Notes under the pieces: generated by a model
Databases searched by the model: none
What the model was told of the DNA's origin: nothing
What the model saw: the letters and a program-made list of their open reading frames with translations, nothing else
Translations under genes and position numbers: made by a program
Assembly (NCBI GenBank): GCA_965367815.1
Contig: CBDUKN010000018.1
Coordinates: forward strand, 1-62,470
Source of the DNA: an uncultured Thermoprotei archaeon
GTDB taxonomy: Archaea; Thermoproteota; Thermoprotei; Thermofilales; B15-G2
Reading direction: 5' to 3'
DNA length: 62,470 nt
In this document: one piece after another, positions 1-5,214 of the stretch
How positions within the stretch are numbered: position 1 is the first letter of the stretch
How the letters are laid out: each line of letters opens with the position of its first letter

Positions 1-2
1 TT

Positions 3-68
3 CAAGCAGAAGACGGCATACGAGATGTAGAGAGGTCTCGTGGGCTCGGAGATGTGTATAAGAGACAG
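3..68 (+). other. Illumina Nextera i7 adapter (artifact)
   Basis: CAAGCAGAAGACGGCATACGAGAT + index GTAGAGAG + GTCTCGTGGGCTCGG + mosaic end AGATGTGTATAAGAGACAG. Confidence 0.99.
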
Positions 69-303
69 GTATAATTGCGGTGTATTAGCAGGACTTGAAG
101 TGGCTACGGCAGTGTGGTACTGGGCTTTAAGTGAATTTAAGAACTTTCTAAGAGAGGAAAATAAAAAGAAACTCGAAAAAGTAATAGAAATTATTGATAA
201 ATATATAGATATAGTTAGAAACGAGAAAATAGCATTGCTAGAAGAAGTAGAAAGAGGAGCTATAGATAGAGTAGCACTAATTAATGAAATTAAAAAACTT
301 TAA
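69..303 (+). CDS. Hypothetical protein of the integrated element, 5'-truncated
   Basis: ORF 40..303; the N-terminal MGSEMCIRDR is translated adapter; the remainder is helical and charged. Confidence 0.55.
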
Positions 304-701
304 AATATTTTTTACCTAATAACATTCTCAAATATCTGAGAAGTGGAGTAGTTTTTAGCTGTTTATCATTAAAATAACAGTTTAACAATAAGCGGAGGAG
401 GGAAATATAATATAGTTATTTGTTTGAAAGCTTATCGTTAATTTACTGTTAAACATTATTTTGTAGGGAAAATTTATAATAAAAGCAGAGGGAAGTGAGG
501 AAACTAAAGAAAAGTTCACAGTTAATATATATCTATAGTTAATGATAGTTACTTTAGAAAGCTATAGAAATGCTATTAACAGTTAAACCTAACTGTAAAC
601 GTATAATGAGAATTAGGTAATATAGAATTTAACTAGAAACATAAAGATAACTTTAAAAGTTTACTAATATATAGAATAATATGGTAATTATTAAATAATT
701 T

Positions 702-1520
702 TTAGTAAGATTTTAAATATTTATCTATTTTTTCGAAATAATCTTTCAAACTCTTTTCTCTTAGTTCTTCTATTATTTTCATTTTTGTTTTATAAGCTTC
801 ATCTAGTTCATTTTTAATTTTCTCATTTACTTCTATTACACCATCCTCCGTTATAATCACAATATCGGTCTGCTTACCTACGCCAGGGGCAAATTCTGCA
901 TATTTTTTGGCTTCATACACCACGTAAAGTGCCTGTGGAATAGGAAGACTCACCGAATAATAGTTTTCAATAAAGCTTCTTATAGCATGATATTCGCCAG
1001 ACCCTATTGCTGTATAGCCTATATCATCAAATGAATTAGAGTATCCGGGATTATCAATAACATAAATATGAGCCCCGCTTTCATCTACGCCAGCAATTAT
1101 TGCCTCAAGCTCTATTCTAAAGTTTTCCACCTGACTTATTATACGATAATAGAGGTCAGTTATCTCTCCTGACTTAACTATATCTCTGTATTCACTCCAA
1201 GTAATGCCGTAAGCGCTAAGGACTCTTCCTTCAATTCCTTTCACTCTAAGTCTTCTATAAGCTCTTTCAGCTGCGTAGGCTATTTCTCTAATATTTAATT
1301 TTTCTATTTTTGCCATTTCCTCTTTTATTAAGTTAATAAATTCTGAAGGAAGTAAAGCCGAACCAGCCGTAGCAATGACGGCTCTCCTTGCCAATATTTG
1401 TAATTTTGATCTAGGATGTTCAAATTGGTGGTATGGTGGTGCTGAATATGTTATCATTTTGTCACTAGCTGCTATTACAGCTTTTCCATTTTCACACATA
1501 GCTGCAATACATATGGTCAT
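702..1520 (-). CDS. Proteasome-beta/HslV-like Ntn hydrolase without propeptide
   Basis: Starts M-T (Thr1 after Met removal); AASDK, SKL, AIGSG and GVG motifs of the proteasome-beta fold; SD GAGGTGA upstream. Confidence 0.8.
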   Translation of the reverse strand: MTICIAAMCENGKAVIAASDKMITYSAPPYHQFEHPRSKLQILARRAVIATAGSALLPSEFINLIKEEMAKIEKLNIREIAYAAERAYRRLRVKGIEGRVLSAYGITWSEYRDIVKSGEITDLYYRIISQVENFRIELEAIIAGVDESGAHIYVIDNPGYSNSFDDIGYTAIGSGEYHAIRSFIENYYSVSLPIPQALYVVYEAKKYAEFAPGVGKQTDIVIITEDGVIEVNEKIKNELDEAYKTKMKIIEELREKSLKDYFEKIDKYLKSY

Positions 1521-1687
1521 TTTTTCACCTCTCTAAAGGTTTTTAGTTTGAAATCCACCATACTTCTTTTTACTTTCCATTTGAACTCCATAGCTAACGC
1601 ATCTATTCTGCTTTGAGCTAAATATATTCTACGGTGATTCCTTTCATTTAACTTGGATTTACTAATTAAGTAAACTCTCATTTTCAT
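1517..1687 (-). CDS. Small basic protein, 56 aa (absent from the ORF track)
   Basis: MKMRVYLISKSKLNERNHRRIYLAQSRIDALAMEFKWKVKRSMVDFKLKTFREVKK; ATGA overlap with the Ntn hydrolase start; TTTATATA box ~27 nt upstream. Confidence 0.6.
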   Translation of the reverse strand: MKMRVYLISKSKLNERNHRRIYLAQSRIDALAMEFKWKVKRSMVDFKLKTFREVKK

Positions 1688-1858
1688 CCTAGTAATATAG
1701 GTAGTACGATAGGTATATAAATAGTGTCTATGAAGACGTTTTCATAAATAACCTATCACTTCTAATGTTCCGGAAAGTGCAGTTTTCGGAAATGTATCCA
1801 CGTAGGCAGTGATAGGCTTAAATAGCCGTTTTCTGCAGATTTTCGCAGAAGTGGGAAT

Positions 1859-2431
1859 ATGTCTCCTGCAATTAAAGTGAATCTGAGGGAGGTTCCCTAT
1901 TTTGAAGATATTTATAATGCTCTTCTGAAGACTAGAAGGCTAGTTGATAGAGAGAAGTATAGACTTAGAGACTTTGTTATTATTTCGACTTTAGCTTTAA
2001 CAGGAATGAGAATTGGTGAGCTTCTTGGTCTCAGGAAAGAAGATGTTGATTTAGAGAGACATGTTATAGTTATAAAGCAGCTTAAAAAGAGGAAGGAGAA
2101 ATATAGAGTAATTCCAGTTCCTGTTGACTGGTACTGGTTCTATATGGGCCGCTACTATGCTCTAGTAAAAAGTGACAGACTTTTCGATTTAAGTGCAAGA
2201 TATGTAAGAGAAATAATCTACAAATGGTCTGAAAGATTCTTAGGCAGAAGAATGAGACCCCATTTCTTTAGACATGCTTATGCACTGTACTTCCTACGAA
2301 AATCAAAAGACCTGGAGGCCTTAAGAAGGCTGCTGGGGCACTCAGATTACAGAGTTCTTAAAGAATACCTTGATTATACTCAAGAAGACTTAGAAGAAGT
2401 TCTTGAAAAGATACTTAACTTAAAGTGGTAA
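1859..2431 (+). CDS. Tyrosine recombinase/integrase (catalytic domain only)
   Basis: TGMRIGEL, HFFRH, LLGH and Tyr in EYLDY give the R-H-R-H-Y catalytic set; lies next to the att site. Confidence 0.93.
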   Translation: MSPAIKVNLREVPYFEDIYNALLKTRRLVDREKYRLRDFVIISTLALTGMRIGELLGLRKEDVDLERHVIVIKQLKKRKEKYRVIPVPVDWYWFYMGRYYALVKSDRLFDLSARYVREIIYKWSERFLGRRMRPHFFRHAYALYFLRKSKDLEALRRLLGHSDYRVLKEYLDYTQEDLEEVLEKILNLKW

Positions 2432-2598
2432 ATATACGCTGATTAACTGAAATAAAATCTAATTAATATCCTATAATAGTATTTATAGTAGCTTTTCCAT
2501 TGCCTTCACTATTTAAGCCATTAGAATTACAATTATTCTTTTAGTATTCGATTGTCTTAGTTAAGTTGTGATGGGCAATGTATTTTTCATTATTAAGA

Positions 2599-2644
2599 GG
2601 ACTCATAATCCGGTTTTCCGGGGTTCGAGTCCCCGCCCCGGCAC
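2599..2644 (+). repeat. att site: 3' half of tRNA-Met(CAT)
   Basis: GGA-CTCATAA-TCCGG anticodon arm remnant, T arm CGGGG-TTCGAGT-CCCCG, acceptor 3' strand CCCCGGCA; no D arm or 5' acceptor strand upstream. Confidence 0.85.
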
Positions 2645-3278
2645 TTTTAAGAAAAAGAGAATTCTCCTAGAGTGGGACTACCATAGGTTGCCTGTTCATG
2701 TTTTAATTGGCAACTACATTCTTAAGTGAAAGAGCAAATAGAGTGTATAAGATAATAGAAAAATACTTTGGCTGAGGTCTAGGTGGCCTGTCATCATGTC
2801 TTAGTAGATAGTGCTGGTTTTCGAATTAAGTGAGAATCTGAGGGAAGTAATTTATAATCAGATATGTCTGTACATGTCATTGCTCTTTATATACGAAGAT
2901 ACTTAGCCTAGAGTTGTAGCTAGTACATATTAATTGAAGCAAGGTTTAGCTAATATTTTCGTAATAATGTTTACAGTAACTTTAAATCGAATTAACTATT
3001 TAAGTCGTTGAAAATATGATTCTTTTTCTAAGTATTCGGCTCTAATTAAGTAGTAAATATGCTCTTATTATTAAGAAGACTTATGAATTCTTTTTGAGAT
3101 TTAGATTTATATTTTAATATTCATTAAAAAATATCTATATGCTTAATGTATTATTATTATTTAATTGTCTAGATGTAAAGAATTACTTATTATTAGTATG
3201 TTATATAGAATCGATGATATTTAATAATTAAACTGCTATATTAATCAGCAAGTAACTAAAAATGATGTATATTTATGT

Positions 3279-4181
3279 TCATATAATATCGCTTATACTA
3301 CTTATAGTTTTCATACATTTATAGATATAGTCATCGATTGCCGTGTACTTTGTATGGTCGTAATTGCTTAACATAATATACAGGGGTTTAGCAAGTATTA
3401 AGTTTCGGCTATCCCAGTAGTCATAGTAGATTTCTTTTATGTTATGTGGGAGGTCTATTAAATAGGGAATTTTTTCGGAAATGTATAATGTAAGTGCTTC
3501 TACAAGATTTTCTTCAAAATAGAGCTGGGAATTTGGATAGCCTGATGGGAAAGATATGTTAGAGTGTTTTAAAAGATAATTTACTTTCTTGTATAATGCA
3601 GGATTTCGCGTATACCATGCAGGATTTTGTAGCACAGGATGTAGTAACTCATGTATTATGGTCATGATATATTTCCAGCTAGTGCATCGAGGGTGAATTA
3701 CTAGCAATATTTTATAGGTGAAAGTGAATCCATAGTCATTCGGACTTACACTAAAAGAGATATTTACATGTATTGTTTCTCTAGGTATTTTTCTCCTAGT
3801 TATTTTCTCTATGGTATTTAATACTTTAATCCAGTTTGTTACCAGATATAGTCTACAGATTTCGTTTTCTAAAAATACTTTATTTTTAAACCAGTATCTT
3901 TTAAAGTCTTCCTCTACTTTTGCATTATTTAGAATTATTTCAAACGATGATAATGCTTCTCTTATAGCAGGTCTTTTATACTTGTTCTTTACTTGACGTA
4001 TTTTTTCTTTAAGGGGCAATGAATCTGGTAATAAAATATTTCCTAAGTTCCATCCAGATACTTTTCTTATAGTTGAAATAAATGTGGCTAACTTAGGATA
4101 CTTTTCTATACTAAGATTGTATATGTAGTATAATTTCTCGGTTTTATTAGAATATGAAAAGATAATTTTTCTTCTGCTCAC
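3279..4181 (-). CDS. Putative zincin-like metalloprotein, hypothetical
   Basis: HELLH (HExxH) plus downstream EENLVE; AT-rich. Confidence 0.6.
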   Translation of the reverse strand: MSRRKIIFSYSNKTEKLYYIYNLSIEKYPKLATFISTIRKVSGWNLGNILLPDSLPLKEKIRQVKNKYKRPAIREALSSFEIILNNAKVEEDFKRYWFKNKVFLENEICRLYLVTNWIKVLNTIEKITRRKIPRETIHVNISFSVSPNDYGFTFTYKILLVIHPRCTSWKYIMTIIHELLHPVLQNPAWYTRNPALYKKVNYLLKHSNISFPSGYPNSQLYFEENLVEALTLYISEKIPYLIDLPHNIKEIYYDYWDSRNLILAKPLYIMLSNYDHTKYTAIDDYIYKCMKTISSISDII

Positions 4182-4641
4182 TATTTACAGTGATTTATTT
4201 AGTATATAATAAAGATTTTCTAATTAAGCTAAGACAAAAGTCGGAGTGAGTGGTTTTCAGAGAGACAGGGTGTACGGAGTTTCCGTTACTTTTACAGGTG
4301 ATAAGAATTCATTTTCAAGATAATAGCAAACCATGAAGAATGCTTGAGTTTCCAAAGAGTGTCTTAACCTAAGAGATATTAGAGGTTTTCTTCTAACTGT
4401 CTCAGGGAAAACATTTAGAGCTCAATAGAATACCCCACCTCTAGCCGGGAAGACAGACGAAGTATTAAGTAAACAATACTTCAACGTATGCTTAGTTAAG
4501 AAACAGAAAATAGAAAATAACTATTTCTTACTTTAAAAAGTAATGCTCCTAACAAGCTTTGTGGGAGTAAATTCCAAAGAGTAATTTACCTTACCTCTCA
4601 GGCGTAATAAAGTGCTAAATGACTCTGGATCAGAAAAGAGC

Positions 4642-5214
4642 CTAAAGTTCAAAGTCCAGAAATGGTTTTTTGGCATAGAGTTCATATTTTCTTTTTTCTC
4701 GTTTAATGTATTTGTAAACTGTTGCATGCATTCTTCCTTCTATTAACATCTCAATAGCTTCTCTTGCTAGTTTTACTTGTTCATAAGTTCCTATTATGGC
4801 GACGTATCTGTCGTGAACAGATATATATGCTTCTGTTAGTTCTTCTAGGCTTTTTCTTGCTCTACCGTTTTCTCCTATTATTCTAGCTTTTATTCTTTTT
4901 AGATCACTTTTACTTTTTGCTTTTTCTTTTAGGTCGATGACATCTAGCATATAGTTTTCATCTAGAAGCAGGAATGCTTTTTCTGGGTTAAATCCATAGC
5001 CTATTGCTTGGATTATGTTCCTAAGTTTCATTAATTCTAATGGTGGTACAGTTTCATCAGCATATACTGTGACTTCGCCTCTGCGGTTGTCTATTTTGAG
5101 CTTTACTTTGAAAGTTTCCTCTATTTTCTTTTTTATTTCTCCTCGTGTGCCTATAAGTACGCCTATTCTGCTCGGATCTATGTTAACTATCATTACTGCT
5201 TTCTTTTTTTCCAC
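4642..5214 (-). CDS. KH-domain RNA-processing protein (Dim2/Pno1/KRR1 family)
   Basis: Two KH GxxG loops (IGTRG, IIGENG), GFNPEKA, GRMHATVY. Confidence 0.92.
   Translation of the reverse strand: MEKKKAVMIVNIDPSRIGVLIGTRGEIKKKIEETFKVKLKIDNRRGEVTVYADETVPPLELMKLRNIIQAIGYGFNPEKAFLLLDENYMLDVIDLKEKAKSKSDLKRIKARIIGENGRARKSLEELTEAYISVHDRYVAIIGTYEQVKLAREAIEMLIEGRMHATVYKYIKREKRKYELYAKKPFLDFEL

Follow-up and report, generated by a model that had tools for sequence, protein, structure and literature searches.

A small basic protein and a propeptide-less proteasome-beta homologue encoded as a two-gene unit beside a short integrase gene in an uncultured Thermoprotei archaeon

Contig CBDUKN010000018.1 (assembly GCA_965367815.1) of an uncultured Thermoprotei archaeon, analysed here over its 62,470 nucleotides and referred to as the window, carries close to its left end two overlapping genes, one for a small basic protein and one for a proteasome-beta-like N-terminal nucleophile (Ntn) hydrolase, which are transcribed divergently from a short tyrosine recombinase (integrase) gene (Table 1). 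The enzyme is a member of a large family of proteasome-beta homologues present in archaea and bacteria, which has already been described and is experimentally uncharacterised. With a probability of roughly 0.5, we favour the reading that the pair consists of a Thr1 enzyme of the type named PHI (proteasome homologue with helical insertion) and a dedicated, conserved small basic partner, and that it is the probable cargo of an integrated element. An original prediction had presented the pair as a mobile cassette and as a candidate for a new system. As far as the enzyme is concerned, the novelty does not hold, as the available text of an earlier study (PMC8665760) already describes the family, including PHI with such an insertion.

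The two-gene unit and its products

Modelling of the enzyme with AlphaFold2 (AF2) on a 29-sequence family alignment resulted in a predicted local distance difference test score (pLDDT) of 95.3 and a predicted template modelling score (pTM) of 0.89. Comparing this model with the Protein Data Bank (PDB) by Foldseek retrieved exclusively 20S proteasome subunits, mostly beta subunits (best E 2e-13), the top matches showing template modelling (TM) scores of 0.65-0.81 for the target and of approximately 0.58 for the query; matches to viral predicted structures were poorer (best 7.8e-9). In the model, the enzyme has the four-layer alpha-beta-beta-alpha fold of proteasome subunits, and phmmer detected weak sequence similarity to solved proteasome subunits (best E 1.2e-4). 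Helices H1 (57-69) and H2 (77-99) are followed by a helical insertion composed of helices 101-104, 108-117 and 122-132, H3 (176-185) and H4 (194-208) are linked by eight residues without any insertion between them, and the protein terminates in a 39-residue C-terminal helix (233-271).

Four positions of the same alignment (K39, G53, G173 and G175) show no variation, and T2 and D20 are retained by no less than 90% of the sequences. T2, D20, K39 and G53 were equated with T1, D17, K33 and G47 by their position in the predicted strands and not by superposition of coordinates. Further invariant residues (R92, K205, E209 and the string APGVG) are specific for the family. Judged from the reading frame, a propeptide is absent, the threonine being residue 2 directly after the start codon, and this start codon-Thr arrangement is found at all 37 related loci whose match begins at residue 1 (five further loci, matched from an internal residue only, stand outside this count). 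Removal of the initiator methionine would expose the threonine as N-terminal nucleophile, and in combination with the conserved Asp and Lys, the oxyanion-hole Gly and the GSG loop this would generate an active threonine peptidase or transpeptidase. The conserved residues make it likely that the protein is an active Thr1 enzyme.

Compared to the NCBIfam equivalog model for the archaeal beta subunit (TIGR03634), the enzyme reached 44.3 bits (1.5e-11) versus a cutoff of 224, and only residues 119-228 were aligned. This model was matched by 27 of the 29 aligned relatives with a best E value of only 1.7e-13, again far under the cutoff, and Pfam family PF00227 was matched by 23 of the 29 (best 4.1e-11). 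The identity of an ordinary archaeal 20S beta subunit (PsmB) was consequently rejected on the basis of the TIGR03634 score and of the missing autocatalytically removed propeptide.

The protein encoded upstream is strongly basic, containing 17 Lys and Arg versus five Asp and Glu among its 56 residues and showing an isoelectric point (pI) of 10.9. In Culexmicrobium profundum (locus L001), whose enzyme is 54% identical and represents the closest relative with DNA examined, a small open reading frame (ORF) is likewise located directly upstream of the enzyme gene. The two small proteins share 38% identity and 81% positives over 26 amino acids (aa) by BLASTP (E 3e-7), and a tblastx comparison of this locus with the whole window revealed nothing shared apart from the enzyme gene and the small ORF. 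A HMMER scan of 1.84 billion representatives with a two-sequence profile yielded two additional relatives, P0123 (59 aa, E 9.4e-9) and P0125 (52 aa, E 1.8e-4), both with the same conserved block and similar C-termini; a third match was spurious, hitting the read-through tail of L001. Across the four sequences conservation is confined to a C-terminal block of approximately 32 residues, in which hydrophobic and Lys residues alternate, the N-terminal half is not conserved, and lengths and C-termini agree in three of the four members. Between the window and L001, seven out of ten identical residues use different codons, and the differences at first, second and third codon positions amount to 11, 8 and 18, the third position being affected most. 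This codon pattern indicates that selection acts on the small protein, and we are highly confident, from these comparisons of sequence, that the small ORF represents a real protein.

A similar upstream ORF was found at none of the other 41 loci of the family. The small protein, by these comparisons, is conserved but confined to a narrow subclade: in a midpoint-rooted within-family tree of 47 rows, the window and L001 span a 4-row subclade (Shimodaira-Hasegawa-like approximate likelihood ratio test (SH-aLRT) 91) within a 9-row clade (SH-aLRT 100). Five loci with interrupted frames and six loci with partial or off-contig matches are omitted from this tree. No known family was recovered with the small protein. 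A word-indexed search of 5.8 billion proteins returned only the query itself, no match was obtained in Pfam, NCBIfam, PADLOC and PHROG including their excisionase families, a profile search of the PDB gave zero matches, and in a language-model atlas scores did not exceed 0.82 and pointed to no family.

The two genes overlap on the minus strand by the sequence ATGA, the stop codon TGA of the small ORF occupying 1519-1517 and the start codon ATG of the enzyme gene 1520-1518. Motifs of the GAGGTGA type, one of which precedes the enzyme gene, serve internal cistrons of archaeal operons. Taken from this arrangement of signals, the operon comprises two genes in this archaeal subclade, of which the second encodes the enzyme. 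The octamer TTTATATA occurs 12 times in the window versus 9.3 copies expected, which is not above chance, and its reading as a promoter is thus based on its position upstream of the small ORF, the count giving no support. The 26-nucleotide (nt) spacing between octamer and ATG fits a leaderless archaeal transcript, and as judged by this spacing the operon is probably leaderless. The small protein would act as a dedicated partner of the enzyme, either as regulator, adaptor or substrate, and would bind to it through the conserved C-terminal amphipathic block. We consider a functional partnership of the two proteins, as suggested by gene order and conservation, an attractive but still tentative proposal.

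Much of what the original prediction had read from the DNA agrees with these data. This applies to the positions of both ORFs and of the TATA-like box, to the ATGA overlap and to the Lys- and Arg-rich character of the 56-aa product. The 29-sequence alignment confirmed the Met-Thr start and the Thr, Asp, Lys and GSG positions, and the AF2 model the helical insertion (101-132) and the helical tail (233-271). The divergent orientation relative to the integrase gene was verified, a translationally coupled two-gene unit is supported by the overlap, the enzyme proved distinct from ordinary PsmB, and the small ORF is conserved as seen from its relatives L001, P0123 and P0125 and from its codon pattern.

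Table 1. Coordinates of the features at the left end of the window
Feature	Positions	Strand	Remarks
Small basic protein gene	1517-1687	(-)	ORF of 56 aa; 54 aa from the second ATG at 1681
Proteasome-beta-like Ntn hydrolase gene	702-1520	(-)	ORF of 272 aa; propeptide-less Met-Thr start
TATA-box-like octamer TTTATATA	1714-1721	(-)	Direct reading; 26 nt 5' of the first ATG (1687) of the small ORF
GAGGTGA, Shine-Dalgarno-like	1525-1531	(-)	4 nt before the enzyme ATG; within the last codons of the small ORF
Tyrosine recombinase gene	1859-2431	(+)	190 aa; PF00589 1.2e-17; divergent from the gene pair
tRNA-3'-half-like remnant, candidate attachment (att) site	2599-2643	(+)	By eye: anticodon-loop-like CTCATAA, T arm, acceptor 3' strand

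Relatives of the enzyme and small ORFs adjoining their genes

A single-sequence search identified 745 relatives of the enzyme at E<=1e-3, and a profile search 1033 relatives at E<=1e-10 among 8000 scored candidates, nearly all of them derived from metagenomes. One scan of species-representative genomes resulted in 42 loci from archaea and bacteria, most of them bacterial, which belong to the Culexarchaeota, Methanobacteriota, Nanoarchaeota, Nitrososphaerota, Chloroflexota, Pseudomonadota, Acidobacteriota, Planctomycetota, Verrucomicrobiota and other phyla. At five loci (L002, L019, L031, L033 and L037) the enzyme frame is interrupted after 65-186 aa despite a near-full-length tblastn match, the frames representing either pseudogenes or errors of metagenome-assembled genomes.

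Small basic ORFs were also observed at the opposite end of the enzyme gene in other branches of the family. In L007 (Cloacimonadota) and L033 (Aerophobetes) such an ORF overlaps the enzyme stop codon by ATGA, at six Dehalococcoidia loci it starts within approximately 30 nt of the enzyme stop, and small basic ORFs are located at the enzyme stop of L002 (Methanobacteriota) and L022 as well; L002 and L033 are at the same time among the loci with interrupted enzyme frames. Counting ORFs of 30-80 aa with an ATG between -30 and +15 of the stop and a Lys plus Arg content of at least 25%, eight of 37 family loci were positive versus two of 282 control genes (Fisher 6e-7), the controls being further genes of these loci with products of 150 aa or more. 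An earlier variant of this criterion gave 10/37 versus 1/282. Under other settings the counts were 5/37 versus 0/282, 12/37 versus 4/282, 10/37 versus 4/282 and 9/37 versus 9/282, and p ranged between 3e-5 and 1e-9 at four other threshold settings. The coding status of the downstream ORFs is judged only from protein similarity within each group and from this enrichment test. Iterative hidden Markov model (HMM) searches of 5342 ORFs from the 42 loci and the window did not link the small-ORF groups to each other: the profile of the window type recovered its two seeds only, that of the L007/L033 type those two, and that of the Dehalococcoidia type its six members.

Two further sets of ORFs were not counted. 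At 11 loci of one clade, Arg- and Trp-rich ORFs overlap the 3' end of the enzyme gene in another frame, and their similarity may stem from the conserved enzyme coding sequence beneath; for the same reason Cys-rich ORFs with 3-8 Cys at L012, L024, L025, L029 and L041 were left aside. The latter, found at five bacterial loci, use GTG or TTG starts located 3 nt before the end of the enzyme stop codon. Both sets occur in one clade and may be GC-rich frame artefacts or real overlapping genes.

A more far-reaching proposal would be that the PHI-like homologues form the catalytic half of a widespread and so far unnoticed two-component system, the other half being a fast-evolving, tiny basic protein. 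This protein, its gene lying on either side of the enzyme gene, would usually escape annotation, it would serve as a substrate that is cleaved or ligated in a connectase-like manner, as a tag or as a gate-keeping subunit, and the window would display the archaeal form on an integrating element. We regard this general scheme as rather unlikely.

Integrase, surroundings of the pair and alternative explanations

The intergenic region between the small ORF and the integrase gene comprises 171 nt. The integrase matches the XerA model with 5.8e-28 and 98 bits versus a cutoff of 220, covering profile positions 110-262 only, which correspond to the catalytic domain, and in-frame stop codons are present upstream of its ATG. 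The best tblastn matches in the phage collection span 81-96% of its 190 aa and lie under features annotated as integrases. A 45-nt stretch resembling the 3' half of a tRNA begins 168 nt after the integrase stop codon. ARAGORN and Rfam called no tRNA at this position, and neither a second copy of the stretch nor an intact tRNA with the same acceptor stem was detected in the window. In archaea, att sites commonly cover the part of a tRNA gene between its anticodon loop and its 3' end, according to the available text of PMC8371274, and integrase and remnant together are consistent with one terminus of an element located to their left. Bases 1-66 of the contig are presumably an Illumina transposase-type adapter with index, for which reason the contig end, approximately 640 nt beyond the gene pair, appears to be an assembly artefact. 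From approximately 4.6 kb onwards, ordinary archaeal chromosomal genes follow (pyrF, pyrE and genes for the mevalonate pathway, diphthamide synthesis, Cdc48 and a ribosomal protein).

Several additional observations were made in this region. A listed ORF (40-303) starts inside the adapter sequence, and 67-303 (+) is the 3' portion of a gene truncated at the contig boundary, with weak PADLOC matches to Cmr5 (E 4.1e-4 and 1.5e-3), the small subunit of type III CRISPR effectors, and without a Pfam match below 0.068. The non-coding stretches flanking the pair (304-701 and 1740-1855) contain short repeated words: three of the five window copies of ACWGTTWAA are located at 377-587, the count across the window being at chance (5 versus 4.1), and the pairs TTCCGGAAA/TTTCGGAAA and TTCTGCAGA/TTTCGCAGAA were noticed by eye between the pair and the integrase gene. 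To the right of the remnant, a 300-aa ORF (3279-4181, (-)) matching no Pfam, NCBIfam, PADLOC or PHROG family contains an H-E-x-x-H motif as in zinc metalloproteases. An 18-nt direct repeat with 89% identity (2589-2606 and 3067-3084), the first copy of which runs into the start of the remnant, might represent an earlier att copy that has degenerated or a chance event in AT-rich DNA; a repeat search of 1-4700 detected only short AT-rich matches.

The gene neighbourhoods of the relatives were scanned for up to two genes per side, covering 143 neighbours at 38 loci; 16 neighbours of four loci with partial matches were left out. A DDE transposase is among the four nearest genes at three of the 38 loci, DNA methylase or restriction genes are neighbours at four (L026, L027, L035 and L041), and a TIR protein gene is adjacent at L033. 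The remaining neighbours are housekeeping genes (gatB/glmS/purA, mreCD, dnaK-dnaJ, rsmI) or do not belong to any family. Next to the L001 pair, genes for a Schlafen/AlbA_2 protein (8.5e-9) and for a 366-aa protein with an Apea-like HEPN match (1.6e-4, below cutoff) are located (L001 1338-4131), genes of the HEPN/Schlafen type being often situated in variable or defence regions. In the Dehalococcoidia locus L012 (3229-8155) the enzyme gene lies between dnaK and dnaJ, after grpE, an unusual site for an insertion, which may point to a connection with protein quality control. Screening with PADLOC-DB 2.0 gave a best E value of 0.061 for the enzyme of the window and no match for the small ORF; among the relatives the best value was 0.011 (P0002, AbiEi), with no match for P0006, P0123 and P0125.

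Since the pair is situated between the contig end and a short recombinase gene with a tRNA-3' remnant, we lean towards the view that it is cargo of an integrated element, either present or decayed. A number of results weigh against the favoured reading of an element-borne PHI-type enzyme with a dedicated partner. No tyrosine recombinase or other integrase gene was found among the 143 neighbours, tblastn in phage and plasmid collections detected no copy, and the other end of the element lies off the contig, only one att-like half being seen. Composition says nothing about a foreign origin, because the GC content of 1-2650 (33.1%, versus 38.2% in the rest of the window) is within the range of the 1-kb windows of the first 12 kb (27.8-37.2%). 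The adjacency of small ORF and enzyme gene is seen at two loci only, the window and L001, and approximately half of the family loci have no adjoining small ORF, which means that the partner is not obligatory. The thresholds of the enrichment test were set after the data had been seen, and the six positive Dehalococcoidia loci represent one lineage, reducing the positives to approximately five independent lineages. By hhalign no homology was detectable between the small-ORF groups, including that of the window (probability <2%). The enzyme of the window has no match to PF00227 at E<=0.01. Moreover, two predictions of the fold of the small protein disagree: AF2 with the four sequences gave one long helix (pLDDT 82.7, pTM 0.45), but the conserved block shows a strand-like periodicity, with hydrophobic moments of 0.76-1.25 at 170 degrees versus 0.18-0.42 at 100 degrees in all four members.

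With respect to mobility, the original prediction had placed a mobile cassette inside an att boundary. What stands is one integrase gene and a tRNA-like 45-nt stretch that is unique in the window; the call of a tRNA, a second copy of the stretch, integrases near the relatives and copies in phages or plasmids were not obtained. Similarly, the expectation that homologues keep a small upstream ORF and are found near integrases was borne out for the small ORF at L001 but not at the other 41 loci, and for integrases at none of the neighbours scanned. These points might be explained by an ordinary chromosomal accessory pair beside an unrelated, decayed remnant consisting of integrase gene and tRNA-like stretch, with nothing mobile at present. 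The restriction of the integrase to its catalytic domain, the composition resembling that of the neighbouring DNA and the mostly housekeeping surroundings of the relatives would fit this explanation. Nevertheless, we consider it the less likely one: an integrase gene beside a tRNA-3' fragment usually marks one end of an integrated element, according to the available text of PMC8371274, the intermixing of phyla in the tree and the patchy distribution among species indicate that the gene moves between lineages, the Schlafen/AlbA_2 and HEPN-like neighbours at L001 are typical of variable regions, and a transposase gene is near three of the 38 loci.

The remaining alternatives concern the small protein and the role of the pair. 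Being tiny, highly basic and encoded divergently from the integrase gene across the 171-nt region, the small protein might serve the integrase as a recombination directionality factor (excisionase) or act as a DNA-binding regulator of the element that shares the enzyme transcript; at L001 the contig ends 268 nt before the small ORF, which leaves room for an integrase gene there. The missing matches to excisionase and other families in Pfam, NCBIfam, PHROG and PADLOC and to PDB entries, the ATGA coupling to the enzyme gene, the tblastx comparison in which the small ORF and the enzyme gene alone are shared, and the small basic ORFs of other clades, located at the opposite end of the enzyme gene with no integrase near, render this improbable. 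A module for toxin-antitoxin function or for defence against viruses, with the protease controlling the small protein or being controlled by it, would suit the coupled two-gene architecture and the minority of loci with methylase or restriction, TIR and HEPN/Schlafen genes, but appears more doubtful still in view of the PADLOC values, the mostly housekeeping neighbourhoods and the many members without an adjoining small ORF. The roles in defence, anti-defence, toxin-antitoxin control and proteasome subversion initially proposed for the pair have thus gained no positive evidence (best PADLOC E 0.061). Finally, the small ORF might be untranslated and its conserved stretch might serve the enzyme gene as a 5' leader or as a regulatory element, which would be compatible with a total of only four sequences, with the word search that found only the query and with the N-terminal half lacking conservation. 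The synonymous codon usage at seven of ten identical residues and the excess of third-position differences, the agreeing lengths and C-termini in three of four members, the location of the ATG 26 nt downstream of a TATA-like box and the overlap of the stop codon with the next start make this explanation very improbable.

Comparison with known proteasome homologues and integrated elements

The locus resembles tRNA-targeting archaeal integrated elements in that the integrase gene adjoins a copy of the part of a tRNA gene that extends from anticodon loop to 3' end, as described in the available text of PMC8371274; it differs by showing one end only, by its unusually short integrase and by the missing intact tRNA and second repeat. 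With regard to the enzyme, Fuchs, Alva and Lupas named 22 uncharacterised proteasome homologues in 2021, including propeptide-less ones (available text of PMC8665760). PHI proteins, as characterised there, possess a long helical insertion that follows H1/H2 and have no propeptide, some members contain a C-terminal coiled coil, and the family is spread over archaea and several bacterial phyla and is nearer to proteasome subunits than most of the other new homologues, its function being unknown (PMC8665760). The enzyme of the window shares with PHI the proteasome-beta fold, the Thr1/Asp/Lys residues, the missing propeptide, a single helical insertion following H1/H2, a long C-terminal helix, the proximity to true proteasome subunits and an occurrence in archaea and several bacterial phyla. 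It is probably a member of the PHI family, the assignment being made by described anatomy and host range and not by the sequence of a representative; for the representative WP_012956871.1, no record naming its organism was present among the best 120 matches of the profile search. What distinguishes the locus from PHI as described is the conserved small upstream gene and the neighbouring integrase gene, the authors reporting in their Discussion, within the text available, that no informative genomic context was found for the 22 homologues (PMC8665760). Our literature searches found no later work on PHI, two citing papers, as far as their text was available, merely citing PMC8665760.

Several related proteins can be set apart from the enzyme. 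PsmB has the fold and the catalytic positions in common with it and its profile matches in part, but the enzyme lacks a propeptide, contains an insertion of approximately 30 residues and a 39-residue C-terminal helix, and has invariants of its own. ACC, an archaeal proteasome homologue with coiled coil, is restricted to archaea according to the available text of PMC8665760 and does not fit for this reason, most of the 42 family loci being bacterial. The PMI families were rejected as they possess an additional H3/H4 insertion which is absent from the model. Connectase lacks H1/H2 and carries its two-helix insertion between strands S3 and S4 (available text of PMC8665760); this identity (DUF2121) was discarded, as H1/H2 are present in the model and no DUF2121 match was obtained at E<=1 for the enzyme or for any of its 29 relatives. 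Profiles of connectase, Anbu, BPH and HslV gave no match at the thresholds used, the sole HslV-type hit being a weak one to the PHROG 'HslV family' (E 0.004).

A similar layout is known from actinobacterial proteasome loci, which show the gene order pup-prcB-prcA. Pup is an acidic, disordered protein of approximately 60 aa that ends with Gly-Gly-Gln/Glu, and a Pup ligase is encoded in the genome. In both cases a proteasome-beta-type gene is immediately preceded by a gene for a protein of approximately 60 aa, and the analogy does not go beyond the layout. The small protein of the window is basic instead and ends with Lys-Lys, and Pfam scans of the window ORFs (E<=1e-6 in one scan) revealed no Pup-ligase-type family within the window; the reading as a Pup-like tag was rejected on these grounds.

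For none of the 22 homologues of the 2021 study is a function known. In our literature searches neither a conserved small partner nor an enrichment of adjoining small basic ORFs was found in print, and a conserved, translationally coupled small protein together with the enrichment across the family could open up the biochemistry of a family distributed over many phyla. If the partner idea fails, the locus represents one more member of a described family beside an integrase remnant. Like connectase, Anbu, BPH and HslV, the enzyme belongs to the propeptide-less or minimal Thr1 proteasome homologues outside the 20S particle. Among these, connectase demonstrates that a homologue of this kind can work as a sequence-specific ligase on a single protein, and since this relative has become a useful protein ligase, a new pair of Thr1 enzyme and substrate could likewise be of practical value.

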